This document shows, one piece after another, positions 13,011-63,394 of a stretch of 64,000 nt of DNA. The notes below the pieces were generated by a model, which saw nothing but the letters and a program-made list of their open reading frames with translations, did no database searches and was not told the DNA's origin. A program made the translations under genes and the position numbers. How positions within the stretch are numbered: the first letter of the stretch is position 1; the number at the start of each line of letters is the position of its first letter. Source of the stretch: Adineta vaga (lineage: Eukaryota > Animalia > Rotifera); NCBI GenBank assembly GCA_021613535.1, contig CP075494.1, forward strand, positions 5,704,001 to 5,768,000, given 5' to 3'.

Positions 13011-13940
13011 TGAAAATGCACTAAGGAAGAAAAACAAGAAACATCTAGAAAGTTAAATCTCTATTTTCCTATAGAATTTTCTTTTTCTCTTCGAAAACTA
13101 ACGAGTACATTGCGTACTATTATTATCGATTTACATTTTATCTGTAGGTCTACATCAGTTTTGATATTTTAATTAAAGAACATTCTCTCCGTCCCGTCAG
13201 TCAATGAACAATATTAAAGGTTTTTAATGCTCATCAACATTCATAAAATTCCTTTTTTTTTCTCTTTCTCTCTTTCGCATGAAAGATTAACTAGAATGAT
13301 ATTCACAATTCTGAGAGCATTTCTATGCTTTAGTAAATCCATCTCTATAATTTTAGTAGGACAAACACATTAATTGAATATAATTTACTTTTGAGATTCA
13401 ACTAAAAAGAAATCTTTCGAATAAATCTAAAGTTGCTTCTTAACTTTCACTTATTTTTCTTTGCATTGCAGATAATTGTTAGTAATGATGAACGACGTGG
13501 ATTTAATATAGAACATGAGATAGAAATGAGTTTCATTCTATTTAAACACACACAGAACGCTGGAATTATTTTCAACCTAATTGCATTTTGTTGATCAATA
13601 ATTTAGTTAATTAAAAGCACGTTTACGTTGTGCTATGGATTTCAAACTTATGTAATTTTTCGCTTTCCATAAAACTGCATAGGTTTCCACACCTACATAG
13701 ACAGATTACTCTCAAGTATAGCATCTGACTAACTATATATATCATAAACTAGTATTTGTTGGTATTCTAACCAATAATAATCATTTCGTATATCAATCAA
13801 TCAATCAATCAAATGGATTTCTAAACATGTATATATGTAATTGATAAAACGAACTGTAGAAATATAAAATCTGGATTTTTTGTTTTTGATTATTTGTTCG
13901 AAAAATAATTTTGTTTTTAGGCACATTCTTACACGTCAAT

Positions 13941-15086
13941 ATGGAACTTAGTGATTCGATTAATCCTGCAGTAGGTATTTTTCATGCAGCATGTTTAGAA
14001 AATGATTTAATAGAGGTTAAGAAAACGATATCACCTCACGTTCTTGATGAACCCGATTCAAATGGTGATACAGCTCTTCATATCGTATCATCAAAAGGTT
14101 ATATTCAACTTATTCAACTTTTATTTCATTATAATGCATCAAGAACAATTCAAAATAAGAATGGTTTAACTGCTGAAGAAGTGGCATTGAATGATGACAC
14201 CAAAAACCTTTTCAAATTAAAGAAAAGACCAAAATCAGATTCAAAACATTTTATTGGTTCAGCAAATGAAATTGAATGGCTTGATACATATAGAAATGCA
14301 CACAGAATCGCTTTCGAAAATCTTGAACATATGAAGCGATGGGTATTGAAAGTACCATTTACAGAATTACTCAAAAAACTTCGAGAAGGCTATATAAACC
14401 ATATTAAGTTTCGTAGCGATCTTTCGAAAAAAGAAATCGAAGGTTATTTGGAGCTAGTCTCAGACTGGGAACAACCGGTAGGATTGATTACAGCATATGT
14501 AAGTGGTGGAACTGGCTTTTGTACAGCTTTAAATTACGATTTAGCTAAACATGGTTCTAATTTTCGTTTTTTAAGTATACAAAATTTATTTGATTCAGGT
14601 TATTCGGATAATGAAGCACCCAAACGTCTTGGTCAATATATATTCACTGCACTTGTTATCAATCATTCTTCCTTTGAAAAATATCAGCGTACTGGACTGA
14701 GCTATCGTGGCATGAGTCTTACTCAAAGCGAAATCGATCAATATAAAAATGGTGATATTATTATGACTCGTTCTTTTCTTTCCACTTCAAAAACTCAACA
14801 AACAGCTGATCTTTTTCTTTCACCATCACATGAACATAAACAAGATCCTTCTGAAAACAAAGCTGATGAACAAAAATATCCCGTTCTATGTGTTTATGAT
14901 GTTGTTAATTCACGATCAAGTCTTAACCTTGAACCACTAAGTCACTTCGACGAACAAGAAGTACTTATTAGTCCTTTTGTGGTTTTTTGTGTCAAGAAAC
15001 CTGCAGATACTTCACTGTATTTAGACAAACCAAAAGATGGTGTTACGCTTATTCATTTAAAAGAATCTAATTCTAATTTAAAATAA
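13941..15086 (+). CDS. Ankyrin repeat + R-S-E class mono-ADP-ribosyltransferase
   Basis: Ankyrin NGDTALHIVS...NKNGLTAEEVA; ART motifs SYRGM, SFLSTSK, DEQEVLI. Confidence 0.85.
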   Translation: MELSDSINPAVGIFHAACLENDLIEVKKTISPHVLDEPDSNGDTALHIVSSKGYIQLIQLLFHYNASRTIQNKNGLTAEEVALNDDTKNLFKLKKRPKSDSKHFIGSANEIEWLDTYRNAHRIAFENLEHMKRWVLKVPFTELLKKLREGYINHIKFRSDLSKKEIEGYLELVSDWEQPVGLITAYVSGGTGFCTALNYDLAKHGSNFRFLSIQNLFDSGYSDNEAPKRLGQYIFTALVINHSSFEKYQRTGLSYRGMSLTQSEIDQYKNGDIIMTRSFLSTSKTQQTADLFLSPSHEHKQDPSENKADEQKYPVLCVYDVVNSRSSLNLEPLSHFDEQEVLISPFVVFCVKKPADTSLYLDKPKDGVTLIHLKESNSNLK

Positions 15087-36996: not shown

Positions 36997-39900
36997 TTAA
37001 TCACACCTTTTGTGTAAGAGAAAAATCACCCATTTCTTCACGTAGTCTTCGTTTAGTGATGGACATTCCAAGGAAGATATATTTTCAGAAAACTTGTCAC
37101 TCGATACTCTTTTGTTTTCTCGAAATACGCTTTCAAATAACAATTCTTTCAACAAATCACCAGCAATACTTTCCTTCTTGAGTTTCTTCTTCCAATTATC
37201 ATCTGATACACCTTCGACAGTAATACTGCATGCTTTCAAACCACTGATTATATCTTCGAACTTTATCTCATCATCTGAATTGATCACATGATAAATATTT
37301 CCATATGTATTCTTTTCACCATTACTCAAATATACAATACTTTTCGCTGTAAAATCCACCGGTAATCCATTCACTCGACCACCTTCCAATCTCGTCGGAT
37401 AACATTTCATCTTCATCATTTCACTCAATAACATTGTATAAACATCATCCACATTACATGCACCACTTCGACTATCACTACAAATCAATCCAAGTCGATA
37501 TATCACCACTCGAACACCACATGCACTTGCTCGACTCATCAACTTCTCGGCTACCCATTTACTTTGTGCATAACCACCTACCAGATCATCGACATTCGTC
37601 TCATCAATCGATCTCTCTTTCTCCACTCTACCACGACCAAGAACACTGATCGTCGACACATATTGAATCGGAATACAAGAATGTGAATGATGAGTGGCGA
37701 ATCGAATGATCTCTCGAGTACCATGCACATTCGATCCATACAACTGATGATATGGAAGAATGAAGTTGACATTTGCACCACAATGATAGATCACATCAAC
37801 TTCACTTGCCAGTTTATCATATGTCTCGTCATTTGCTAGTCCAAAATGATGCTTCGACAGATCACCTCGTAGTGGGATGACACGCTGTTCATATTCATCA
37901 TTCCAGATCTGGTAAAACAGCATATTCTTTCGAATTCGATCAAATGCATCCTTTTCATTCTCACATCGAACAAGACAAACAAACTGACATGTCGATGGAT
38001 GCACTGTCAATAGTTCAGCTAACAGGAATGCACCAACAAATCCTGTTGTTCCAGTAATGAATATCATCGATGGATGCAATGCTGTGTTCTTGTGATCAGT
38101 GACAATGATATCGAGATCAGTATTGGCATCTTTCAACAGTTGTGTACCGATGGATCGTGACCATGAAGAGAGATGAGAAGGATGTTGAATGAGAGATGTG
38201 AGCTGTTGTAGATCGACTTGCGGATCGAAGAGAATGTCCATTGGAATCGACACGCCAAGATCATGTTCGATCATTCGAGAAAGACGAGTCGCTGACAATG
38301 AATCGGTGCCCGTCGTGAGGATGCTATGGTGTTGTTCGTCAGAGGAAGTGATCTCGTGTCCTGTGACTGTTTCGATGAGCGTTTTGAGTTGTTGTTCGAG
38401 TGAGTTATTGGATGTGTTGGCTCGTAGTTGGTGTGCGTAATGTGCAGCTATTTTATGTCGACAATGTTTCAACGATGATGTCAACAAACCATTTTCAGGC
38501 GTAAACGGATGAAAATCGATGATGATGTGAGATGGAATCTCATGTTTTCGAAGTGCTTCTTGTTCTGCAATGGATCGAAGATCTTGTTGAATAGCTTGAG
38601 AGAAGAGTGGGTGGGGGTTGTTGGTATCGAATGATGTGAGGTGATGCTGAAGAGCATATGCTTGTGCATACTGTTGATTTGGAACGATGACAGCAGAGAC
38701 ACAATCAGACAATAGATCACCATGGATATAGATTTGATCGATGAATGGACTCTGAATGTAGATGCTTTGAAGATATTCAGGTGAAACAAATTGACCTTGT
38801 GCTAGTTTGAAGAAGTTCTTTTTTCGATCAATAACATGAATATCGCCTTGAGCAGTTCGGGTAGTACGTAGTTCGACAATATCACCAGTTCGAAAGAATC
38901 CATCATCAGTAATAGCAGCATTAGTTTCATCTGGATTGTTGATATATCCTGAGAACATCTGTGGTGTTTTGATGAGAAGTTCTCCTCGTGAGTAAGGTTT
39001 ATCATCAGGTGTGTAGCCCATTTCGGGAACAGATTCGAGCCGATATTGAAGTGTATTTTCAGGAAAATTATCAAATGCTACACTACCACATTCAGTAATA
39101 CCATACGACTCATGAACTAAACAATGTGTGAAACAACGTTTCATAAAATCGAGTACTACTGGACTAACCATAGCACCACCAATAGCGATCGAGCCACACC
39201 GATTAGGAATAAGTTTCGAAAATTCTTGAAGAAGACGTTTCTCTTCATCGGCAAGTTTTTCAGGAGGAGAATTAGCAGTGACAAGTGCAAGTGCGGCTCG
39301 AAATTCTGTGTAGATTTTATTCCAAATACTTGGTGGTCCGCCAAAGTAGGTAGGTCTAACTAGTGCGAGTTCTTCCATGAGTCGTGATGGATCTCCTGTG
39401 GAGAATCCTGTTCGACCTCCACATAAAAAGGTGGTGATAATGGCATCACGATCTGCTGCCCATGCTAACGGTCGATATGATAATGTCACACGTTCAAGTG
39501 ACGAAGGTAAACACCATCGTGGAAATGTTGCTCGAAAAGCACTTTCCGAAATGATGGCACCTTTCGGAAAACCAGAACTCCCACTTGTGTATATAATAGT
39601 GAGATAATCATCAGGTCCGTTTTCCCGATATTCATATGTATTTATTGCTCCATTCGTTTCCACATCACGCATATAGTGAAGAAAATCAGTGTTGTTTGAT
39701 GTCGAAACTGAAGAAAAAATTTCAGTTATTTCACATATCAAATGATATAATGTAGCTGTTTAATTGTGTACTCACTCAACACTTCATCTGAAATTGGATC
39801 CATACATACAATATGTCGAAGTGATGAACACTGTGGCTGAACAGCAATAAATCTTGTCAACATGTCTTTATCGCATACTATCACAGATATTTTTGTATTA

Positions 39901-40436
39901 TTGATGACATATGCTATTTCACGATCAGTAAACAATGTGTAGATAGGAACACTGATAATACTTTGAAAGATGCATGCAAAATCAGTAATCACCCATTCAG
40001 GTCGATTTCCAGCACAGATTCCAAGATAATCTCGAGGATTGATTAGTTGTCTCAAACCATGTCCAAAATGTTTTGCTCGATCACCGATTGTTTTGAAAGT
40101 GAACCATGAATAAGAATCTTTGTAGATGGAAGGATTACTTTGATCTTGATCTCGTATTCCCATACAATGACGATCCCAATACATAGCTATTGCTGCTCGA
40201 AGTCCAGTAGCCATATCTATTTTCATACATTCTTTCATTTCTTCTCGTCCGTATGCCAATTCAGGAACCATTCGATGTGGATGCCGAGGATTGTCTGTTG
40301 TCATACATTGCTGACAATAATCATAATTACGGCAAACAGTACAATTGTAACGAGTTTCACCATGATTTATCTGACGTTGGCATGCGTCACAATACCAATA
40401 ACTTGGTTTCACCGAAGTAGTTTTATCATCATCCAT
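36997..40436 (-). CDS. ZZ zinc finger + carboxylic acid reductase-like NRPS module (A-T-R), copy 1; intron 39708-39775
   Basis: ZZ CDAC...RYNCTVCRNYDYCQQC...HPH; A domain YTSGSSGFPKG, ESYGITE, FFRTGD, IDRKKNFFKLAQGQFV; T domain GTDSLSA; R domain TGTTGFVG and GYAQSKW. Confidence 0.92.
37286..38829. repeat. Near-identical direct repeat shared with 44334-45877
   Basis: Offset 7048; only two substitutions noticed by eye. Further identical tracts: 38876-39050 = 45924-46098 and 39796-40177 = 46816-47197. Confidence 0.92.
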
Positions 40437-41239: not shown

Positions 41240-41335
41240 ATGTCCAACTCGCTAGGGTCTTATAATGATAAAAAAGATGGGTTGAAAGGAAGTAAAATGA
41301 AACAACATCATTACTTCGAAAAGTATAATACATAG
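41240..41335 (+). pseudogene. Internally deleted copy of the HNH/EndoVII toxin-like gene at 43581
   Basis: MSNSLGSYNDKKD-GLKGSKMKQHHYFEKYNT* aligns to both ends of 43581-43913 with about 80 central codons missing. Confidence 0.75.
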
Positions 41336-42622
41336 TGGAGATGAACGTCAGCAACAAATTTGAAAGTATACTACTAACATTCTCGTATTATAGATTAATA
41401 TGATTAGCACCAAAAATCCGACCAATATTATTAACTCTTACATATCCATTCTGAACTCTACCATCTATACATAGAAAAAAATAGAAATTATTCAAGAAAA
41501 TTTGTAATAGTAGTATCGTAGCATACTGGGTAATAAAACAACAATTAATTGACGAGCATAGAACATGTAATTTTATAAACAGAAAATTACGATACAAACC
41601 AATACTAACGTATTTTTTCGATCGATACTCTTTGGAACCCAAGGAAGCAACAAGTTTGATAAATTAATTACAATCACTGTTACCACCATTGACATATCTT
41701 ATTTATAAGAAAAAGAAGGAATATGTTTAAATGAACTACTAAATCGATATTCTGACTCGCCAGTACGAAGACGTCCACTACATTCCGTATTTAGTGAATT
41801 GCCGTGAGTTTTGGAAATTCAAGCAAAAGTAACATCACTACAACTTTTTATTCATGATCCGAATTAGTTGAAAAGTCTAGAGAGAGAGAGAGAGACCAGA
41901 GTCTAATTAATCTAATCTATATCTACAAACAAACCTTTTTCAAAAGCAATCCAATAATATATCAATTTAAAGCTTCCAACTGTTACAGAATAGTGAAGAA
42001 AGATAAGTATAATAGATACCAATATGAAATATTGCATGCTATTCGATCTATGCATTTCTTTTCACGAAAATTATCTATATAGACAACCCAATTGTAAATA
42101 GAACCTAAGGAAACAAAAAGTTATTCCATCCCATAAGATTTTCAAATGTGTATATGATATATGTGAATAAAATCATAACAGAATTGCATACCCAATCAAA
42201 ACGATTTATTTTTATTCAAACAAGAAAAGTATTAACAATAGAATTGATTTAAGGTATAGGCAAAAATTCAAAAACAGACTTTTTTTGCATCATTGGATAA
42301 TTTTAATAATAAAAATATGATGGAAATTAGGATCTCTTTATACTATGTTAATCAATGAAAAAAGTAAATTTTGTTGTGATAGGGACTGTGCTTGTTATTT
42401 TATAAGTCATTGTTGTAATTCTATCATGGTGAAGTTATCAGCACATACTCAAATATTGTGATTACGCACACTCTCAGTTGATGTTGACTCAAGTTAATCA
42501 AAAATTAAATCAAATCAACAGAACAGAAAAGGTAGCAGCAATTTCATGCTTATATATATGTGTAGTGTGAATACAACGTGCTATTTTTCCACCTATTATT
42601 TTTTCTAGTCTGTTCAAGGACA

Positions 42623-43346
42623 ATGTCTTCAATTATTTCGATTATTTGTTCGAACAATTGTATATTAGAAAATGAATCTTTGGAAAATGCTGTTCGTTTG
42701 AAAGATTGTACAACGATTAATAATACAGCAAATAATTCAGAATGTATTGTTTAATTTGAAATGAATTTAGTTTCAAAACGTCTAAATAATAATTTAACTT
42801 CAAAGATATTTACTGATAATTTTTCTACTGGAGAGTTACTAGTTATTATTCATTTTGATCTTGGCATTTCAAACTCTTCTTATATTGAAGTAACTTATAA
42901 ATGTCGTTCGAACAATTTGTATGATCAAGCATTTGCACGTGAAACCTTGACAAATTTACGTAGTAACATTGAAATCGATCAATTACGTGAAAAACTAGCT
43001 TCATCCTTGTATAATCCGACTACAGCAACAGTACCAGATATAATACGATGTGGCTCGCATTAGTAACCTTAGTGCAGCAACAATAAGCTGGAGACAAACA
43101 TACCGACCATCACAGTATGTTACGCAAAAATTAGATTATACATGCAACAATGATTATTGTACGGCAGCTGAAATAGTTACGAACATCACTGATATTTTAC
43201 ATAATGAATATGTTTTACCATTGAATATTTCAACGCAAAAATTGCCACCACCACCAATAACAACGCCATCGTCTGAAGGTATTACCATCATTCATCGTAT
43301 TTTGTATTTTATTTTGTCATTATGTTTCTCTATTTTAATTCTATAA
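42623..43346 (+). pseudogene. Decayed cysteine-rich surface or GPI-anchored-like protein
   Basis: CSNNC...DC...EC reading continues through an in-frame TAA at 42752-42754, with a frame change near 43050; YTCNNDYC motif, P/T-rich stalk and hydrophobic C-terminal tail. Confidence 0.55.
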
Positions 43347-43533
43347 ATATAATAAACTAGTCCTTCTTCTTTTTCATATTGCATGACTTATCTTATCAAG
43401 TCAAATATTGACTATAAATAAAACGAGAAAAAAAGCCAGCAAGAACGTAGTTGATATGTACTAATCACGTCTTTTGTTTATTACCATTTTGGATTATTCA
43501 TTGCAAGAAAGGAAAAAAACCATATCAACTTTA

Positions 43534-43541
43534 TATATAAA
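43534..43541 (+). promoter_or_regulatory. Candidate TATA box of the toxin-like gene
   Basis: TATATAAA about 40 nt upstream of ATG 43581; the AT-rich background lowers its significance. Confidence 0.35.
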
Positions 43542-43580
43542 TATCTCTGAAAGACAATCGAATTTCTCATTGTAAACACC

Positions 43581-43913
43581 ATGACATCGTCAACCTACAA
43601 TGATAAAAGAGATACTAATAGTGAATATCAAAATGAAGCATTTCAAAAAGCAAAATTTGCTAACGGAATACCAAAAGCAAAAGATCCGACTAATACAGGT
43701 CAACCCGAGAAAATCAAAGATACAAGCAATCCTGGTAAATATTTGTATCAATATGAATTTATTAACGATTATGGTGAAGAAATATCCATAAGATAGGATA
43801 ATGCAGTCAACTACAATGATTCAAATCCTAATCAAAAACCGCATTACAATGCTGGACCGAAAGGAAGTAAATTGAAACAACATCATTATTTTGAACATTA
43901 TAATAAAATTTAG
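43581..43913 (+). pseudogene. Stand-alone HNH/EndoVII-fold polymorphic-toxin-like nuclease (Tox-HNH-EHHH-like) with one in-frame TAG at 43794-43796
   Basis: NEAFQKAKFANGIP...LYQYEFINDYGEEISIR*DNAVNY...NQKPHYNAGPKGSKLKQHHYF. The reading frame is intact on both sides of the TAG. Confidence 0.7.
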
Positions 43914-44044
43914 TAGATTAATCCTATGCAGAAACGCATAAGCAAAAAAAGAACTATAGCTGTCGTTTTTGTGTAGTCATTCGTCTTTTTTCAATAATGT
44001 TTTATTACGTAGAATATAAGCAAGTTTCTCTTCAAAATATACTA

Positions 44045-47000
44045 TCAAGAACAAATATTTGCTGATATAAAATGCAACCATTTCACTACATAGTGTTTGT
44101 CGAGTAATGAACATTTCAATGCAGATATACCGTTTTCATACATCTCATTTGACACCGTTCTTGACTCTTCGAATACCCCTTCGAATAAAAATTGCCGCAT
44201 CAGATTCACTGTACCATGCTTTTCATTCATCTTCATCTTCCATTTATCATCTGACACACCTTGCAATGCTATATCACACATTTTCATACCATCTATAACA
44301 TCATCAAATAATATTAAACTATTCTCCTTCAATACATGATAAATATTTCCATATGTATTCTTTTCACCATTACTCAAATATACAATACTTTTCGCTGTAA
44401 AATCCACCGGTAATCCATTCACTCGACCACCTTCCAATCTCGTCGGATAACATTTCATCTTCATCATTTCACTCAATAACATTGTATAAACATCATCCAC
44501 ATTACATGCACCACTTCGACTATCACTACAAATCAATCCAAGTCGATATATCACCACTCGAACACCACATGCACTTGCTCGACTCATCAACTTCTCGGCT
44601 ACCCATTTACTTTGTGCATAACCACCTACCAGATCATCGACATTCGTCTCATCAATCGATCTCTCTTTCTCCACTCTACCACGACCAAGAACACTGATCG
44701 TCGACACATATTGAATCGGAATACAAGAATGTGAATGATGAGTGGCGAATCGAATGATCTCTCGAGTACCATGCACATTCGATCCATACAACTGATGATA
44801 TGGAAGAATGAAGTTGACATTTGCACCACAATGATAGATCACATCAACTTCACTTGCCAGTTTATCATATGTCTCGTCATTTGCTAGTCCAAAATGATGC
44901 TTCGACAGATCACCTCGTAGTGGGATGACACGCTGTTCATATTCATCATTCCAGATCTGGTAAAACAGCATATTCTTTCGAATTCGATCAAATGCATCCT
45001 TTTCATTCTCACATCGAACAAGACAAACAAACTGACATGTCGATGGATGCACTGTCAATAGTTCAGCTAACAGGAATGCACCAACAAATCCTGTTGTTCC
45101 AGTAATGAATATCATCGATGGATGCAATGCTGTGTTCTTGTGATCAGTGACAATGATATCGAGATCAGTATTGGCATCTTTCAACAGTTGTGTACCGATG
45201 GATCGTGACCATGAAGAGAGATGAGAAGGATGTTGAATGAGAGATGTGAGCTGTTGTAGATCGACTTGCGGATCGAAGAGAATGTCCATTGGAATCGACA
45301 CGCCAAGATCATGTTCGATCATTCGAGAAAGACGAGTCGCTGACAATGAATCGGTGCCCGTCGTGAGGATGCTATGGTGTTGTTCGTCAGAGGAAGTGAT
45401 CTCGTGTCCTGTGACTGTTTCGATGAGCGTTTTGAGTTGTTGTTCGAGTGAGTTATTGGATGTGTTGGCTCGTAGTTGGTGTGCGTAATGTGCAGCTATT
45501 TTATGTCGACAATGTTTCAACGATGATGTCAACAAACCATTTTCAGGCGTAAACGGATGAAAATCGATGATGATGTGAGATGGAATCTCATGTTTTCGAA
45601 GTGCTTCTTGTTCTGCAATGGATCGAAGATCTTGTTGAATAGCTTGAGAGAAGAGTGGGTGGGGGTTGCTGGTATCGAATGATGTGAGGTGATGCTGAAG
45701 AGCATATGCTTGTGCATACTGTTGATTTGGAACGATGACAGCAGAGACACAATCAGACAATAGATCACCATGGATATAGATTTGATCGATGAATGGACTC
45801 TGAATATAGATGCTTTGAAGATATTCAGGTGAAACAAATTGACCTTGTGCTAGTTTGAAGAAGTTCTTTTTTCGATCGATGACACGAATATGAATTTCAT
45901 TTGTATCACTTACACTTAGTTCAACAATATCACCAGTTCGAAAGAATCCATCATCAGTAATAGCAGCATTAGTTTCATCTGGATTGTTGATATATCCTGA
46001 GAACATCTGTGGTGTTTTGATGAGAAGTTCTCCTCGTGAGTAAGGTTTATCATCAGGTGTGTAGCCCATTTCGGGAACAGATTCGAGCCGATATTGAACA
46101 GTATCATCGAGAATACAGTTGTAGGTTACACCTCCACATTCAGTGATGCCATACGACTCGTGAATTGAACAATGTGTGAAACAACGTTTCATAAAATCGA
46201 GTACTACTGGACTGATCGGAGCTCCACCGGTACTGATCAGTTTGCAGCGATTGGGCATAAGTTTCGAAAATTCTTGAAGAACACACTGTTCTTTATTGGT
46301 AAACGTTTCAGCAGAAGCATTCACTGTTAGAAATGATAAGGCAATTTGAAATTCACTATAAATCTTGTTCCAAAAAGCGGGAACAGCTAAGAAATCTGTT
46401 GGTCTAACTAGTACGAGTTCATCCATGAGTCGTGATAGATCTCCTGTTGCAAATGCAGTTCGACCACCGTTAAGCATCGTTAAGATGATAGCATCACGAT
46501 CAGCCGCCCAAGCTAACGGTCGATAAGAAAAGTGAATATAATCTGATGACGATGATGGACACCGACGTGGAAGTGATGCTCGAACAGCTTTCTGTGAGAC
46601 TATAGCTCCTTTTGGAAAGCCAGAACTTCCACTCGTATATAAAATAGTGAGACAATCCTCAGGTTCAGCAAGAACATAAGTATATTTATTTGTCATACCG
46701 TTTCTTTCAATTTGATCCATTGAATGGATAAAAATCTTGTTTTCCCTATCTGCTGAAACAATCATTATACACGTTTTTCTGTAATATATACTTACTAGTC
46801 TTTTGTTCGAGAACAGGATCCATACATACAATATGTCGAAGTGATGAACACTGTGGCTGAACAGCAATAAATCTTGTCAACATGTCTTTATCGCATACTA
46901 TCACAGATATTTTTGTATTATTGATGACATATGCTATTTCACGATCAGTAAACAATGTGTAGATAGGAACACTGATAATACTTTGAAAGATGCATGCAAA

Positions 47001-47444
47001 ATCAGTAATCACCCATTCAGGTCGATTTCCAGCACAGATTCCAAGATAATCTCGAGGATTGATTAGTTGTCTCAAACCATGTCCAAAATGTTTTGCTCGA
47101 TCACCGATTGTTTTGAAAGTGAACCATGAATAAGAATCTTTGTAGATGGAAGGATTACTTTGATCTTGATCTCGTATTCCCATACAATGACGATCCCGAT
47201 ACATTGACAATGCTATTCGAAGTAGACCTGCTACATGTTTCGTATGAGATTTATGTTTTTCTGCAGGACCATAAGAAAGTTCGGAAACCATTCGATGCGG
47301 ATGCGGTGGATCCGAAGTCATTAGGCAATTCTCACAATAATCGAAATCATCACAAACCGTACAGTTATAACGAAGTTCTCCATGTTGAAGTGTACGATTA
47401 CATTTATTACAATACCAAAAACTTACTTTTCCCGAGGAAGTCAT
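44045..47444 (-). CDS. ZZ zinc finger + carboxylic acid reductase-like NRPS module (A-T-R), copy 2; intron about 46751-46795
   Basis: Same architecture, motifs and intron position as copy 1; ZZ CNKC...CTVCDDFDYCENC...HPH. Confidence 0.92.
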
Positions 47445-52800: not shown

Positions 52801-53962
52801 TTAAACTGTTGTTGTATAAGGATGTTTTGACAACCATAAAGCATCTGATCTTTCTTTTGCGTCAATCAAAAGTGTATGACGAAGTATACTGGAAAGATAG
52901 GAATCGTGTACTGAATTTTGATTTGGAGGAGGACGATAACATGGTTCAATATAATCCGGAGGTGTCATGTAAATCATACGATAGAGAATAGCACCTAATG
53001 ACCAAATATCCGCTTTTGTTGTAAGTATTGGGGCATGATGTCTAGAAACAATTGTTAATTCAGGTGCTGAATAAGGTGGAGTACCGTATGTGAGACTTCT
53101 AAATATATTAATATTGAATTACTTGTAAAGATGTTGTTACAAATACGTTACCTTGGTTCGTTAACTTTTTGAGCTATACCGAAATCTGTCAATTTAATAA
53201 TATTTCCGTAAAATAGGATTAAATTATCAGGTGAAATATTCAAATGCATCTACAAGAAGAAATCAAGTATAAAAACAAATGATTTAAAAGGCAATTGACA
53301 TTACTATATGAGAATTTTGCAGAGTAACAACAATATTTACTAATTGTCTCCATATTCCTTTTTTTTCTGTTGATAATAGTGCAGATCGTTGTGAAAGATA
53401 CTTTTCCAAATCTTGATATCCCAGTTCCATAACAAGAAAACTTAAACCTGTTTGATGAAAATCAAAATCATACAAATCTACAATATGATTTGATTTGCCA
53501 GTTAAACGTTTAGTCATCCTGATTTCATTTATAAATGATTGTGCAATCATTGAGATTTCTCTACTATCGCGTGCAACTAATGATAGAACTTTGATAGCAA
53601 CTGGTTTATCTACATGAACAGAACAAATTTGATATACTTGAAGAATAACACATCAATTGACTTACTATCCGAACGTCGATGTGCGGCATAAATAGAACTA
53701 AATCTACCCGTCGCAAGTTTCCTGTCAAAAATATACGGATGTTTATGAATCTCTATCAAATGATTTTCAATGGATATTGATCGATAAGTGTATTGTTGAG
53801 GGTGTTGTTGTTGATGATGATGATTTTGATGATAATTCGGATTCCGTGCATAATCTATTTTTGAGAAGAAAAGTTGTTGGAATAAAATTAGCAAGGCGGT
53901 AATTTTCAAAACTTACAATTTCCCGAAGGGATCGCATATGGTTGTACGTATGGCGACGACAT
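52801..53962 (-). CDS. Kinase array member K1, predicted pseudokinase
   Basis: Five exons; VAIK, DFG and APE present, but the catalytic loop reads HLNISPDN and the Gly-loop LATGRFSSIY. Confidence 0.8.
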
Positions 53963-54285
53963 AAAGGTAACACGAATAAGAAAAATTTATTGAAAATAAA
54001 TAATAATATTTATCGATGAAGATACAGTGATAGGTAACTAAATGAAATGGGAAATGTGTCATTAAAAACAACACGTTTTTTCATGTTATGACGCAAACAA
54101 AAAAACATGTACGTATCATTTCATCTTGCTTATTTATATATTTAATAAAGTATGATGATAATATGTTTCGTTAGAGATAAAAAAGCAATTTACAAAAGTG
54201 TTCGTTATTCAAAGAGAACGTGGTGTAGGAAAAACCGATTCTGATCGTTTTAATTTTAGTACATATAAACAATCAAAAATATATC

Positions 54286-55390
54286 TTAGGTATTTGTAAA
54301 TGGATGATTGGCAATCCATGATACACCAGCTCTTCTTATAGGATTTCCTACCAACGTATGAACAAGAATATCAAGAAGTTGAGGATCAGATGTTGGATAT
54401 TGATTAAATGGTGGACGATGATATGGAGGATTATATTCAGGTGCAGTCATGTAAGTCATACGATAAAGTATAGCACCCCATGACCAAGCATCTGCTCTTG
54501 TTGTAAGCATTTTAACATATGGAATATGTGATGTGACTTCAGGTGCTGAATATGGTGGAATACCATTTGGTCTTGATCTATTCAAAAAAATTAATAGTAG
54601 AGTTAGGTTATAAGACAATATGATCGATCGAACATACATTTGTAAAGCGCGTCTAGCAATACCAAGATCACTTAATTTGACTATTCCATTATGAAATACA
54701 ATAATATTTTCTGGTTTTATATCTCGATGCACCTACAGAGAACAAATGAAATATTGCCAAAGAAGTTTCACATCAAACAACTCATTACGATTTTAGACGT
54801 ATGAAGATTAACAGCAATATCTACAAGTTGTCGCCATAATAGTTTTCTCTCTGTTGACGAAAGTTTTGATTTTCCTCCAAGATATTTTTCTAGATCTTGC
54901 TGACCAAGTTCCATAACAAGATATGCAACGCCTAATTGGGGATCAAAATCAACAGCATACATGTAAACTACTCGAGTCGTTAAATTAGACAATTCTCTTG
55001 TTTTTTGGAATTCATTAATAACAGATTCAGAATTTCGATGTGCTTGTTCCTCAGTCCCTGTTGCTAAAGTGATAATTTTGATAGCAACAGGTTTATCTAA
55101 GTGAATAAATTAGTTAGTTTTCTTCGGAGAAAAACGATATTAAAGTAAACCGACTATCTCGATGTCGACGTGCTGTATAAACATAACCAAAAGCACCATT
55201 CCCAAGAAATTGATCAAAAGTATATTGATCTTTATATATACTACACGTTCTTCTTTCCATTGCTATCAAATGAACGCCAGGATTTTTATCATTTAGATTA
55301 AACCTAACTTCTATGGATTAAAGTAAGACTTTGTATTATGAAAAGAAAGAAATTAAGATTATTTTTCTTACTTTTACGAAATGCACACAT
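54286..55390 (-). CDS. Kinase array member K2, Ser/Thr kinase
   Basis: LGNGAFG, VAIK, HRDIKPEN, DLG, YSAPE. Confidence 0.85.
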
Positions 55391-56090
55391 ATTATATCTA
55401 ATATACGTTTACTAAACTACTGACAATAGCAAATCATACATATGAATAGAAAGTGATCGATAAGACGGATGTAATGACAAACAAAATAACATATTATACG
55501 ACCGTGCGTCTTATGACGGTAAGTAGTAATAGTGGGTATTTTCCAATCGTCTTTTTATTGAGATAGATAAGTGACATTAGAGGTGATATAAAAAGAAACT
55601 TTTCAACAAGATGAATAACTATGAATCATTAATTATCTGATAAATATTTATTATCTATTTAGAATTCTTGATCGATGGAAGAACGGATCGTTTATATGTA
55701 TAAAGTAGTTTTCATGTAATATAGGAGCGTTTCCGAATAGTTGAATATGGGTGTGACTGTAAAATAAGTAGAGTTGATTTTTACTGCTATGGACTCGATA
55801 CAGATATTTCAAGTTATTTTTACATTTGTCGATTTTACGCATAATAGAACTGCGCATTTCGAAAATGATGTAAAGATCGATCTATCAGTGAATTCAATGA
55901 CACAGAATATAAATTTCAAGGTGCACCTGAATTTCAGAATGTAATACTTCGTTTAAGTAAGGAAAACATATTTTAATGTCTATTCACCGATGTATATTAG
56001 AACAAAAAACAAAAAATTCAATACATTTAATCACAGATCTTAGGAAAAAGGACAAGTTTGTCTATGATTTATGAATATGAAAATATGTTT

Positions 56091-57207
56091 TTAATTCGTT
56101 ATTGTATATGGATGTTTGGCAAGCCATGCAACAGTCGCTCGATCATTTGGACTTCTGATAAGTGTATGTCGAAGAACATCAAGAAGATGTGTATCATGTG
56201 TAATACGTCGATCGGGAGGAGGACGATAGTAAGGTTCATCGAGAGGTGGGCGTGCCATGTATGTCATACGATAAAGTACAGCGCCATAGGACCAAACATC
56301 TGTTTTTGTGGTAAGTATTGTTGGAACAATGGCTGAAGTTACTTCAGGTGCTGAATAAGGACGACTACCGGTTCGTTCAGTTCTAAATTTTGAAAGAGAA
56401 ATTCATTACTTTTTATAATACAAACTCGAATCAAAGAAAATTACTTTTGAAGAACACGTTTTGCTATACCAAGATCACCTAATTTGATAATATCACCTGG
56501 AAACATAATAAGATTCAATGGTTTGATATCTCGATGTACCTATTCATCAAAATAATTCTTATCAGAAAAAAAAGTCAAATAAAATCAATCAAATTACAAT
56601 TTTCGCTTGATGAAGAGTGACAGCAATATCCATTAATTGTCGCCATAATGATTTTCTAATTACCGGTGAAAGATGCGATTTTTGAGAAAGATATTTTTCT
56701 AAATCTTGTTGACCAAGTTCCATAACAAGATATGCAACACCTAATTGAGGATCAAAATCAACATCAAACATACGTACAATATGATCGGTTGACTTAGTTA
56801 ATTCTCTTGATTTTTCAAATTCATTAATAACAGATTCAGAATTTCGACGTGACCGTTCGGGACTGTTCGCCATTAATGATACAACTTTGACAGCAACTAA
56901 TTTTTCTAAATAATTAGAGAAAATTTTCATTTTCAAACAAAGTATTGCTTCGAATAAGATAAACTACGATCTGGATGTCGACGCGCTGAATAAACAAAGC
57001 CAAATGATCCATTGCCACGATATTCATCAAATGTATATTGTTTTTTATGAATTGTCCATGTTTGTCTTGCCATATCTACTCGTTTAATATCGTTATTATA
57101 AGCATATGAACGTGGTTTTCTTCTAAATCTTGGGGTCAAATCTATTTGAAAATAGTAAATCAATGATGTTTTCAATTGAATTTCTTACCGTAATGAAAGG
57201 CACACAT
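56091..57207 (-). CDS. Kinase array member K3, Ser/Thr kinase
   Basis: RGNGSFG, VAVK, HRDIKPLN, DLG, YSAPE. Confidence 0.85.
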
Positions 57208-57703
57208 GTTCGATGATTTCTTTATAAAGTTTTATTAGTAGAAGAGTCAAATGATGTTGTTAAAACGCGATGAATAGGAATGACAAAAATGTATATCATA
57301 TTGTAATATATATTAATAGCAAGAAATTGGCATGACATGCATGTGTAACCTATCGATGATGAAAGTTACGAACTAGAAAAACATGTTATTTATATTAGTG
57401 TTAATGGAAAGTAGAACGGTTGATAATTTGTGAATCATATTTTGCTGATAAGTAATCAGAAATCATATCTTTTCAAGATGGTGTACAATTAAAATGTTGA
57501 AGTGATATCGTAATGAATTGTGGAACAAATGAAAAAAATTATTTATAACAATATTGAAGAACAAAATTCGCTTTTTTTAGAACAGAAAAATATTCAAGAA
57601 AAACTAATTATTACGAGCAAAAGTAAATGACTCAGTTTATATCAGGATTATATGCGATTCATTTATCATGAATAATAAATTCATTGAAATCGACATCAAA
57701 TGT

Positions 57704-58839
57704 CTAATGTAGTACTGTATATGGATGGTCAATAAACCAATATGCATTTGGTCGTTCTCTTGGATCAAGTACAAGTGTATGTCGAAGAATATTACGAAGA
57801 TGTGGATCACGTGTTGAATGTTGATTGAGTGGTGCACGATAGCATGGTTCATGATAATCAGGAGGTGCCATGTAAGTCATACGATATAGTACAGCACCCC
57901 ATGACCAAACATCAGCTTTTGATGTATTTAATGTTATATGATGATGTGCAATAAGTGTTACTTCTGGTGCTGAAAATGGTGCACTACCATTAGGTCCAAT
58001 TCTAAAGAAATCAAGAAAAGAAAAAGATCATGTTTGAGAATTCGGACGAATAGTTAACTATTATTACCTTTGTCCATAAGCTCGTTGAGCAATACCCATA
58101 TCAACTAATTTGATAAGACCACCATGAAATAGAACAAGATTTTGTGGTTTAATGTCGAAATGCACCTATAACGACAACAAAAAAAAGAACATGATCAAAT
58201 GTAATTATGAGAAAACAAAAACTGAAACGAATTACAATCAAATTATTTTCAAGTGTAATCGCAATATCGACTAATTGTTTCCATATTGCTTTTCTTTCTA
58301 CAGGTGAAATTGCCATTCGATTTGAAAGATATTTTTCCAAATCTTGTTGACCAAGTTCCATAACAATAAACGATAATCCTGTTTGATAATGAAAATCGAA
58401 ATCATACATATGTATGATATGATTCGATGTTTGAGCTAATCGTCTTGCCATTCGAATTTCATTGAGAACTGCTTCAGAATTTTGAGCTATTAGAGCATTA
58501 TTTTTTGTTGCTAATGATATGACTTTAATAGCAACTGGACTATCTATGTTTAGTAGAAACTTTACAATCAATGAAGAGTGCTGCATAAATTTTACATACC
58601 ATCAATCATGCGTCGTGCTGAGTAGACAGCACCATATGCACCATGACCAAGCTTCTGATCAAAATTATATTCATACCCATTGATAGGAAGGATTGTACGT
58701 TCGAGTGGTATTGAAACAATTGTAAAACGCGATCGATTTTTAGAAGATTTATCTCTGACTTAGAAAAAAACGAAATCTTTTTTAATCGAAGAATGAATAC
58801 ATATGAATAAAAATTCTTACTATAACGAAACGCACACAT
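57704..58839 (-). CDS. Kinase array member K4, Ser/Thr kinase (non-RD)
   Basis: LGHGAYG, VAIK, HFDIKPQN, DMG, FSAPE. Confidence 0.85.
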
Positions 58840-60703: not shown

Positions 60704-63394
60704 ATGACAGATTTTCTACGCTCGTTTGTAATTGAGCTTCTCGACAAATTTACTATACTATTTGAGATCTGAATGTTCAACGTTATTTAGTTTTTCATAC
60801 ATTATTTTTCAGGTTGAGTACATCAGACTCAGTATCAAATGACACTAGTCGTGTAACAGCAGACATATTAAAAGATCTATGTAATTGTAATCCAAGATCA
60901 GCGACGCCCAAAGATCGTTTACCACATGATTGCTATATGATTACAATCGGCCATTTGCGCTCTGAACATCTGATGAAATTAAAGGAAATGAATGAATCGC
61001 ACGGAATCAAATCATTCAAAGAGGAAGATGAAAATCAATCGGAGTATTCAATATTAAGTTCGGAAAACGTTGAATCGATATTGGAATATATGGCAATAGA
61101 TAGTCTAACGGAACAATTGCAGAATCAACGAAAACGTTATTTTGTTTATGAAGATAATTTTAATTCAGCTCTAATCGATTTGATTAAAGCAAATTCATCA
61201 TTTGAAAAACTTAAACAAGTGTGCAGTAAATTTTAGCAGCGAGATGGAATTAATCTGACCAGGGTCATGGCTGAACATGAGGAGCGAGTGGATTTATCTT
61301 ACTTGTATTTTCGTGAGAAAAACTTGTCAGATGACGAAGCAAAAGCTTTGGCATTTTCACTTTCATTCTACACTGGCACAAAGAGTGAGACATGCAACCG
61401 TGGCGCTAGTCTTATTGCTCGTACAGGTAATGGAGAAGTGATTGAACCGAGAACAGCAAACGAAATCAATGAAGCGGCTATTATTTTATATTATTTGGTT
61501 AAATCTCTATCATACATACCATTCTATTGGGGATATGTTACACGTGCATGTCAACTAACATTTCATGAATTATCTATGTATACACCTGGTCGTTTGATTA
61601 CTTGGATTCAATTCAGTAGTTCAAAAAAAGGTAAAAAAGTAGTTAATAATACCAGTTTTAAAGAACGGAATACACTTTTTAAAATCTTCTCATTGACGGG
61701 TCGTTCGATTAAACAATTCTCTAATTATCCGGAAGAAGATGAAGTTTTATTTTTACCACATACGACGTTCCTTGTCTTTAATCGGAAAACATTTAGCAAT
61801 CAACAAAAAAATGTCATCTATATGCGACAAGTCGAACTTGGCCTATGTGAATGGTCAGTTTTATGGGTAGATGACGAGATATTCAGTGAAGATTGGGAAA
61901 AAAAACAACATATGGAATATGTAGCTGCTTCAGCACTTGATATGAACGTTCATTTTATTGCAAAATCGTCTACTGACAGTGCCTTATCATTTCTTCAATC
62001 TGTATTTGGACAACGTCTGAAAAATTGTGATACATTTCGAATTGTTACTGATATGAATCGACGTAATGAAGTACCTGTTCATAATGCAGGTGCACGATTG
62101 ATTAAAGCAGTAAGACAAATGGGTTTTAAAAATAAATGTTTGATTTTCACCAGTAACCAAAAACGAGCTCAACAAATCCTTAATTCTGAACTAATTTCAA
62201 AAGAACGACAATCTGTTTTTGTATCTACTAAAATTGAAGATCTACGAAATTTTGTGAACTTCGATCGAGTGATGACGAGCGCACAAGAATCAACTACTCA
62301 AAAATCAAAAGGATCAGGTAAGAAGTTTAGTTAAAAATTCTCATAACTTCTTTCTATCTCTTTGTTACAGCAAATGATTCAAATGCCTCTACAACCACGA
62401 TTCCTTCTGCTGCAGTATATCAAAGTACCGTTGGTAATAATGCTATCACAACTTCTATCAACGCAGAAAATGAAATGATGCATAATAGAGAAAATACTGA
62501 CATAAGCATGTTGATGAACAATTGTTACTTACGAAACTTAACTGATAGTCCTCACAAGTAAGCTTTAATTTGGAAAATAGATCCTGATAGACTGAGTCAC
62601 CGATTGTATTTTTCCTTAAATAACTTAGTACTTTTTATATAGTTGTGTTCTACTTACTACTGGCTCTTTGAATCCTGTTCATCCTTTACATCTTCAAAAT
62701 CGTCTACATGTCAAACAGTATCTTGAAAATGAACATCAGCCACCATGGAATGTTATTGCAGGATATGTTTCACCAACACAGTATGTTATTTTGAATTTCT
62801 TTTAACTCTCCAATGATTATCATTGTCGTTGTCTGTTTAAGTGATAAATATGTGCGTTCAAAATTAGGTGATCTTCATTGGATTCCTGCTAAAGATCGAT
62901 GTCAGCTATGTAAACAAGTTATCGAATTTGAAACTTCAGAAATATCATCTTGGGTTGATGTTTCTCGAGGTGAAAGTGAATGGAAAGAGGGTTTCGTTGA
63001 TTTCGATCCTGTGACGAAAAGTTTTCGTGATTTTCTCAACATAACACTTGTTGATCAAGAAAAACTTCTCAAATATCCATTGCATGTAGTTTATGTTTGT
63101 GGATTAGATCATTATAACAAATGTGCTGATGTTGAACGAATGGTACAACAAGAAAACATCTTGTGTGCTGTGGTTTATCGTGTAGGTTATGATGAGAAGA
63201 AGATAAATAGTTCGTTGCAATCATCTGGTGTAATCTATATTCCACTATTAGAAAAGCGTGCAAAACTCGAACATGTTAGTTCAACACAGATTCGACGATA
63301 TTTTCAAAATCCAACAGGTATTGCAACCAATATTGAGAAGAATATCTATCCGGTTGTTTAGAATTATATGAGTAAAAAGTATAAGAAAGAATAA
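60704..63394 (+). CDS. ADP-ribosyltransferase + receiver-like domain + NMNAT-like nucleotidyltransferase fusion (possibly disabled by in-frame TAGs at 61234 and 63359)
   Basis: Predicted introns 60724-60812, 62318-62370, 62558-62642 and 62781-62841 keep the frame. ART: VTRAC, QFSSS, EEDEVL. Receiver-like: VLWVDD, IVTDM, AGARLI, CLIFT. NMNAT-like: TGSLNPVHPLH, GYVSPTHDKYV, YVCGLDH, VSSTQIR. Confidence 0.78.

Follow-up and report, generated by a model that had tools for sequence, protein, structure and literature searches.

A probably dead copy, in Adineta vaga, of a toxin tip most likely captured from bacterial Rhs proteins, and its intact bdelloid relatives, predicted BECR-like nucleases

We analysed a 64,000-nucleotide stretch of the genome of the bdelloid rotifer Adineta vaga (contig CP075494.1, hereafter the window), which is intron-bearing animal DNA of 31% GC. 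Between two carboxylic-acid-reductase-like (CAR-like) genes lies a short gene related to the C-terminal toxin tips of bacterial Rhs proteins. The features of this locus are:

36997..40436, minus strand: CAR-like gene, copy 1, 86.8% alike in nucleotides to copy 2 over 3.4 kb
41240..41335, plus strand: second toxin-tip copy, a 31-codon ORF that joins the first 13 codons of a paralogue to its last 18
43477..43482, minus strand: AATAAA that probably serves the convergent CAR-like gene as poly(A) signal
43532-43542, plus strand: TATA-like stretch, of a density not above chance
43581..43913, plus strand: stand-alone, PF15657-related toxin-tip gene, a predicted BECR-like nuclease of 110 codons, interrupted at codon 72
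43735..43806, plus strand: 72-nt GT..AG intron implied by gene model I4U23_023682, under which the stop is spliced out together with R71 and D73
43794..43796, plus strand: internal TAG, in the variable middle position of R71-x-D73
44045..47444, minus strand: CAR-like gene, copy 2, an adenylation-carrier-reductase with an N-terminal ZZ finger

The toxin-tip frame (43581-43913, plus strand) comprises 71 codons, the TAG at 43794-43796, 38 further codons and a terminal TAG. Its translation yields the 110-codon protein that an earlier, sequence-only reading of this DNA had obtained by reading through the first TAG. Similarity to known proteins is far above chance, with seven protein matches (E 1e-50 to 9e-17) and 166 matches at E ≤ 0.001 among 1.84 billion representatives. 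The Adineta vaga record I4U23_023682 is identical to the two ends of the frame at 86 of 86 residues. The match to this record marks the window as bdelloid DNA, and the earlier description of a stand-alone toxin tip in an animal genome holds.

The frame has no hydrophobic leader in a hydropathy check and no delivery domain at 43581-43913, and no immunity-like ORF lies downstream of 43913, where the next gene is the convergent CAR-like gene ending at 44045. At this locus the sequence-only reading was thus right that delivery domain, signal peptide and adjacent immunity gene are all missing. The delivery domain and adjacent immunity gene of a polymorphic toxin system are both found in bacterial relatives. 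The same reading had pointed to a TATA-like box and to an AATAAA at 43902. Both are present, the latter within the final codons of the frame, but they are weak evidence for a gene because such words are frequent in the window (TATA-like 1.6/kb, AATAAA 1.8/kb).

The two CAR-like genes form a tandem pair with AMP-binding, PP-binding and NAD_binding_4 domains and an added N-terminal ZZ zinc finger, and long, near-identical stretches in their carrier and reductase parts suggest gene conversion. Elsewhere in the window are frames that we take, by their motifs, to encode an ankyrin plus ADP-ribosyltransferase-like protein (13890-15086, plus strand), an ADP-ribosyltransferase plus receiver-like protein (60766-62334, plus strand) and at least three tandem, intron-split protein-kinase-like copies (53284-58601, minus strand).

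Intact stand-alone relatives of 106-129 residues, at 66-80% identity, were recovered in the protein search. We identified intact orthologues in A. ricciae (CAF0796661.1, on a 914-kb contig), Rotaria sp. Silwood1 (CAF3641174.1, on a 191-kb contig) and Didymodactylos carnosus (60% identity to the A. ricciae protein). In the Adineta, Rotaria and Didymodactylos records the orthologues start with their own methionine, are about 110 residues long and have no carrier domain. In a tree of 60 rows (unrooted, like all trees here, with five partial or mis-modelled rows excluded), the bdelloid orthologues fall in a 19-row branch with support of 98/98. The window copy lies beside A. ricciae and has a longer end branch, 0.26 versus about 0.15. 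A tree of 46 rows, including 24 of 92 long rows, places 14 short proteins on one side of a branch with support of 99/98; this set was picked after earlier trees had been viewed, and 4 of the 14 have a named host. The family is both integrated in host DNA and retained across related bdelloid species. UniRef records from A. ricciae, R. sordida and A. steineri already carry a Tox-HNH-EHHH-type or HNH/Endo VII toxin name. The name HNH/Endo VII toxin domain on family members is an automatic label.

Two further bdelloid groups were identified. One comprises three Rotaria sordida proteins, whose contigs are small; the other comprises four A. steineri proteins (P0125 and P0222-P0224), with contigs of up to 477 kb. 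The A. steineri proteins have a pI of about 10 and a hydrophobic start, with a mean hydropathy in a crude test of 3.4 over 11 residues versus 0.03 for the window protein. Such a start resembles a signal peptide, and these proteins are possibly secreted. This group is possibly a separate capture. We considered several separate captures for the family as a whole and did not adopt them: the three bdelloid groups separate in unconstrained trees, but a single origin is not rejected (p-AU 0.547, with 8 bdelloid rows and 36 of 94 long rows). Metagenomes also contain many short, methionine-started, stand-alone homologues, some on contigs of 52-367 kb, which possibly come from other micro-eukaryotes.

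The relatives at 40-49% identity form the C-terminal ends of bacterial Rhs toxins. Of 31 long matches, 30 reach E ≤ 3e-20, at 40-49% identity, and many are labelled Rhs. Five long matches name Spongiimicrobium, Paludibacter, Dysgonomonas, Galbibacter and Sinomicrobium, which we take to be Bacteroidota. The domain ends no more than 15 residues from the C-terminus in 191 of 198 profile-matched proteins (202 collected). It terminates an Rhs-type ORF at three bacterial loci (L002, L003 and L006; L001 is the same gene as L002), and at these and a fourth (L004) an ORF of 164-240 residues lies directly 3' of the domain ORF. The position directly after the toxin ORF is the usual place of an immunity gene. 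Positions 22-8566 of L003 hold an Rhs gene with the toxin tip, the immunity-like gene, and then an orphan Rhs cassette whose tip differs and looks like HNH, followed by a small gene of its own; this is a typical polymorphic toxin array.

The breadth of the family on the bacterial side points to the direction of transfer, and passage from bacteria to bdelloids is very probable. The Rhs-tip relatives and the bdelloid orthologues together substantiate the horizontal capture of an Rhs-type toxin tip that had been proposed from the sequence, and the capture is old and not peculiar to the A. vaga genome. Searches of plasmids and phages gave no match to the family. Viral contigs gave no true match, a single 26-residue match in a phage portal-region frame looking like chance.

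The best Pfam match of the window protein is PF15657 (Tox-HNH-EHHH), at E 0.028 and 15.2 bits against a curated cut-off of 25 bits. Five intact close relatives score 12.8-23.3 bits, also under the 25-bit cut-off. PF15657 is matched at E ≤ 0.1 by 34 of 37 family members, and more distant members carry precomputed PF15657 annotations. The family assignment in the sequence-only reading thus stands as a weak best match, while the HNH/EndoVII fold attached to it is not the one predicted. Intact relatives modelled with AlphaFold2 (two models, from 20 and 37 alignment rows, pLDDT 88.8 and 89.6) are predicted to have a helix and beta-meander of the BECR-like type, in the order E14-18 H19-29 E45-48 E56-63 E69-75, loop, E90-95, E102-108. 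The single helix is N-terminal to the sheet and no helix follows the His-bearing strands, a predicted layout that does not fit the beta-beta-alpha core of HNH/His-Me finger nucleases.

The BECR-like superfamily is defined by a helix, which a strand may precede, beta3, an extended loop, beta4 and a C-terminal beta5, with active-site residues at the ends of the loop-flanking strands; available passages of the same preprint call PF15657 misannotated as HNH, reassign it to BECR-like and propose the name BECR-like-Tox1 (10.64898/2026.08.28.747851). Both predicted models match this layout element by element. In them R-x-D closes strand 69-75 and H-x-N opens strand 90-95, so that the loop is flanked as in the definition, and these flanking residues are each retained in 98% of homologues. 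On the strength of the models, the fold is very probably BECR-like, running from an N-terminal strand through a helix, a beta-meander and a long loop to beta4 and beta5, and with R71, D73, H88, N90 and H101 flanking the loop.

The best structural neighbour of both models is 5T86_A, a CdiA toxin (Z 5.1, rmsd 4.1, 83 aligned for the first; Z 5.0, rmsd 4.0, 80 aligned for the second); a Z of about 5 is below the 8 that the tool takes to mark a clear match, and the second model's score ties with the next row. There are no HNH chains among the 50 structural matches listed for either model, though kinship with that family may escape such structural searches. Foldseek against the PDB and viral models returned nothing at E ≤ 0.001. 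A PDB sequence search gave no matches with one alignment and three chance-level matches (E ≥ 0.17) with another, and 20 family members had no real match in NCBIfam. The ESM Atlas ranks bacterial clusters first and PF15657 at 0.89, with low recognition, and all hits of A. steineri P0125 are below 0.8; we treat these as leads only.

The internal TAG had been thought to occupy a conserved acidic or glutamine active-site position. The homologue alignment contradicts this. The column is variable: nine different residues occur in it, the most frequent in 53 of 195 homologues and acidic ones in 43 of 195, and E, D or Q occurs there in none of 15 close orthologues. Nor does any of 195 homologues have an [ED]H dyad at that site; x-D stands there instead and the later His residues are retained; the PF15657 motif of [ED]H plus two more His (PMC3482391) is absent. 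The family has its own conserved pattern, R-x-D...H-x-N...H, comprising R71 (192/195), D73 (191/195), H88 (187/190), N90 (188/191) and H101 (183/186). These five residues are retained together in 176 of 185 homologues and in all five named bdelloid proteins checked. With K25 and Q85 they are near-invariant (98-99%), and all seven are encoded in the window frame. The stop is thus not at a predicted catalytic position, yet it matters: it falls between R71 and D73, with loss of the rest of the predicted site. A 71-residue product would be without D73, H88, N90, H101 and H102.

An assembly error does not account for the stop. Position 43794 is covered by contigs from eight runs of five studies, none of which shows an alternative letter; these are 8 of 24 sequencing runs, one of which may be the source of the assembly itself, and run contigs drop rare variants. 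In run X9 the flanks show two haplotypes at a depth of about 36 each, and the contig over 43727-43970 has a depth of 72 and no differences. As this depth is that of both haplotypes summed, both likely carry the stop. One X2 contig spans 42000-44363 with no difference, reaching the neighbouring gene. On run contigs, the check suggested earlier returned TAG in eight of eight runs. It may be that only a single laboratory clone carries the stop; all runs bear one organism code and possibly represent one clonal line. Run X9 also shows a haplotype without 649 bases at 42477-43125, with six other letters instead.

The second toxin-tip copy (41240..41335) has lost about 80 core codons in frame, with start and stop intact. 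Its 3' arm is alike at 45 of 54 nt, with a tblastn E of 4e-5. It has no contig cover in four runs, which proves nothing. The main copy has decayed little: it equals A. ricciae at 53 of 71 residues before the stop (75%) and at 30 of 37 after it (81%), and has five private changes at 72 conserved columns, where intact rows have 0-13. Such slight decay indicates that the loss is recent or that the gene is still in use. Together with the in-frame stop, it agrees with the earlier description of the gene as recently disabled. Both local copies are likely dead.

We assign a probability of roughly 0.6 to the reading that this is a dead bdelloid copy of a captured Rhs toxin tip, and that the intact family is a predicted BECR-like ribonuclease whose probable role is defence against microbes, aimed at their translation. 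An early bdelloid most likely acquired the C-terminal toxin tip of a bacterial Rhs protein. Other bdelloids keep intact stand-alone copies, which are predicted, at somewhat better than even odds, to be active RNases. In A. vaga the stop would leave R71 as the only predicted catalytic residue, and the core is missing from the second copy; it is thus highly probable that the locus is dead, and its loss looks recent. The A. steineri group, with its signal-peptide-like start, would be secreted. For the main clade, which has no leader, intracellular microbes, cell lysis or action in the host cell are options for reaching a target. Several points weigh against this reading: the structural Z is about 5, Foldseek gave nothing and the window protein is under the Pfam cut-off; little decay also fits a gene still in use; an intact, diverged copy may lie elsewhere in the genome; and the substrate may be DNA, as one tested PF15657 member, TseI, degraded plasmid DNA.

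How such an enzyme might spare its host is suggested by SRLase1, the first tested BECR-like member, which carries R70, D72, H85 and H97 and cleaves the sarcin-ricin loop of 23S rRNA. It depends on EF-Tu and did not cleave eukaryotic ribosomes, according to available sections of the report (10.64898/2026.09.18.752725). SRLase1 belongs to another BECR-like family, and we compare it by residue pattern and topology. By analogy, the intact copies would also need bacterial EF-Tu and bacterial ribosomes, a doubtful extension; such dependence would leave the host unharmed, with no immunity gene needed. A bolder version, which we consider rather unlikely, is that bdelloids turned the Rhs tip into a family of ribonucleases that the animals use against bacteria, in the cytosol in most lineages and as secreted proteins in Adineta steineri. 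These would be host-safe without an immunity protein because they would work only with bacterial EF-Tu on bacterial ribosomes, in effect protein antibiotics that bring their own selectivity, and they would have been lost in this fungus-susceptible A. vaga line. Passages of PMC11258130 report that fungal attack killed 71% of A. vaga versus 18% of the one other species tested. The coincidence of this susceptibility with the lost toxin tip is just that, and not evidence.

The strongest alternative, itself unlikely, keeps the window copy dead and makes the intact family a host-directed cytosolic nuclease, under transcription control, that halts translation or kills infected rotifer cells. Without a leader, proteins of the main clade would by default stay in the cytosol of the host. 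Under attack by fungi, bdelloids strongly induce RNA ligases acquired by capture, a sign of conflict at the RNA level (passages of PMC11258130), and such roles have been suggested for transferred toxin domains (passages of PMC3482391). Speaking against it, the proteins have no sensor or regulatory domain, no inhibitor gene lies beside the window copy, and the only characterised BECR-like enzyme spared eukaryotic ribosomes.

Less probable still is an intact family of DNases, acting against microbes or in DNA handling after desiccation. The precedent is TseI, annotated as PF15657, which degraded plasmid DNA and needed its histidines (available parts of PMC7170923). The absence of an [ED]H dyad from all homologues argues otherwise, and the R-x-D...H...H pattern and the fold match RNases.

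We regard it as quite improbable that the stop is a control device through which leaky readthrough or RNA editing gives a little full-length toxin. The frame is as conserved after the stop as before it, both X9 haplotypes carry it, and X9 shows no difference at 43514-43970 while the flanks are heterozygous, all of which would suit such a device. However, an intergenic 423-nt stretch in X9 is equally homozygous, the sister copy is broken by a deletion, and the stop is absent from 15 of 15 close relatives, which have a sense codon there (alignment A2). Leaky readthrough contexts include CARYYA and CUAG; the context here, TAG-GATAAT, is neither, and no hairpin follows the TAG (z -0.33 versus mononucleotide shuffles). 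These results leave the leaky readthrough offered in the sequence-only reading without support. Tryptophan, the product of A-to-I editing, occurs at the stop column in 0 of 195 homologues.

We give even less credence to the 72-nt database intron, which has GT..AG ends and an open frame and would yield an 86-residue, non-catalytic protein. Its excision would take out two predicted strands along with R71 and D73, and intact relatives are colinear there. No splice joint at 43735-43806 was seen in any of eight runs, and the six RNA-like or unlabelled runs that cover the toxin-tip frame have none, though their cover may be antisense. RNA-like contigs end at 43435, 43458 (two runs), 43466, 43513 and 43547. 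The two ends at 43458 are 19 bases beyond the AATAAA at 43477-43482, and four RNA-like runs continue into the convergent CAR-like gene; the contigs give no strand, and two runs have pieces confined to 43513-43893 and 43466-44019. The simplest reading is that this cover is the antisense 3' UTR of the CAR-like gene, though the toxin-tip frame may also have transcription of its own. Finally, the bacterial-type domain might suggest bacterial contamination or an assembly error, which we dismiss, as the frame's composition (GC 0.30, GC3 0.19) is like that of a nearby rotifer GPCR gene (0.31, 0.15), as expected with long residence in rotifer DNA, contigs in several studies join the frame to the neighbouring gene, and the orthologues follow the bdelloid genera.

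A dead copy of a captured Rhs tip is ordinary, and gene capture is very common in bdelloids. Among bacterial toxin effectors domesticated by animals, the family would be a further variant, retained in three or more bdelloid genera with every predicted catalytic residue in place and found here without carrier or immunity gene. It makes one ask how an animal can safely harbour such a predicted nuclease and how the protein gets to its target. The intact copies, the signal-peptide-like variant and the natural double loss are testable, and they bear on the claim that PF15657 members are RNases rather than HNH DNases.

In a survey of titles and abstract starts, with most subscription papers outside its scope, no paper describes this family in rotifers. 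PMC11258130 has no relevant match in its passages or in 14 of 16 supplement files, its largest table and two PDFs being outside this scope, and the passages of PMC11996579, PMC13224477 and PMC8632748 contain nothing bearing on the family. The distribution figure of the BECR-like preprint may already show eukaryotic members. We also considered Rehh, described in a preprint, as the same family; it is another one.

Among the closest known systems are SRLase1 and Salmonella Rhs2. Rhs2 depends on D192 and H204 and binds EF-Tu, and its nearest structure is 5T86, as far as available passages report (10.64898/2026.05.10.723254). The rotifer family resembles these toxins in predicted topology, in R-x-D...H...H spacing and, for Rhs2, in the 5T86_A neighbour. 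It differs in that SRLase1 and Rhs2/Ntox47 are separate families, and in that the window copy has no delivery domain or immunity protein. With PF15657 and TseI of Aeromonas dhakensis, bacterial relatives of the rotifer family share a C-terminal Rhs tip and a downstream immunity-like gene. TseI has His where the bdelloid clade has Asp. PF15657 was reported with 197 bacterial members and no eukaryotic ones counted (passages of PMC5714182), and Tox-EHHH with only bacteria listed, rotifers being named for Het-C (passages of PMC3482391). In the rotifer family x-D...H-x-N...H-H replaces [ED]H,H,H, and the protein is stand-alone and in an animal.

Among toxins taken up by animals, tick Dae2 attacks the cell wall from outside, whereas a nuclease has to get inside the cell it acts on, and proteins of the main rotifer clade carry no leader. 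Like the rotifer family, Dae2 derives from an interbacterial toxin gene captured by an animal, and it was kept for antibacterial use (abstract of 10.1101/2020.04.10.036376). The defence genes that bdelloids have acquired (NRPS/PKS, RNA ligases and glucanases; passages of PMC11258130) occur in the same animals but make small molecules or repair RNA.
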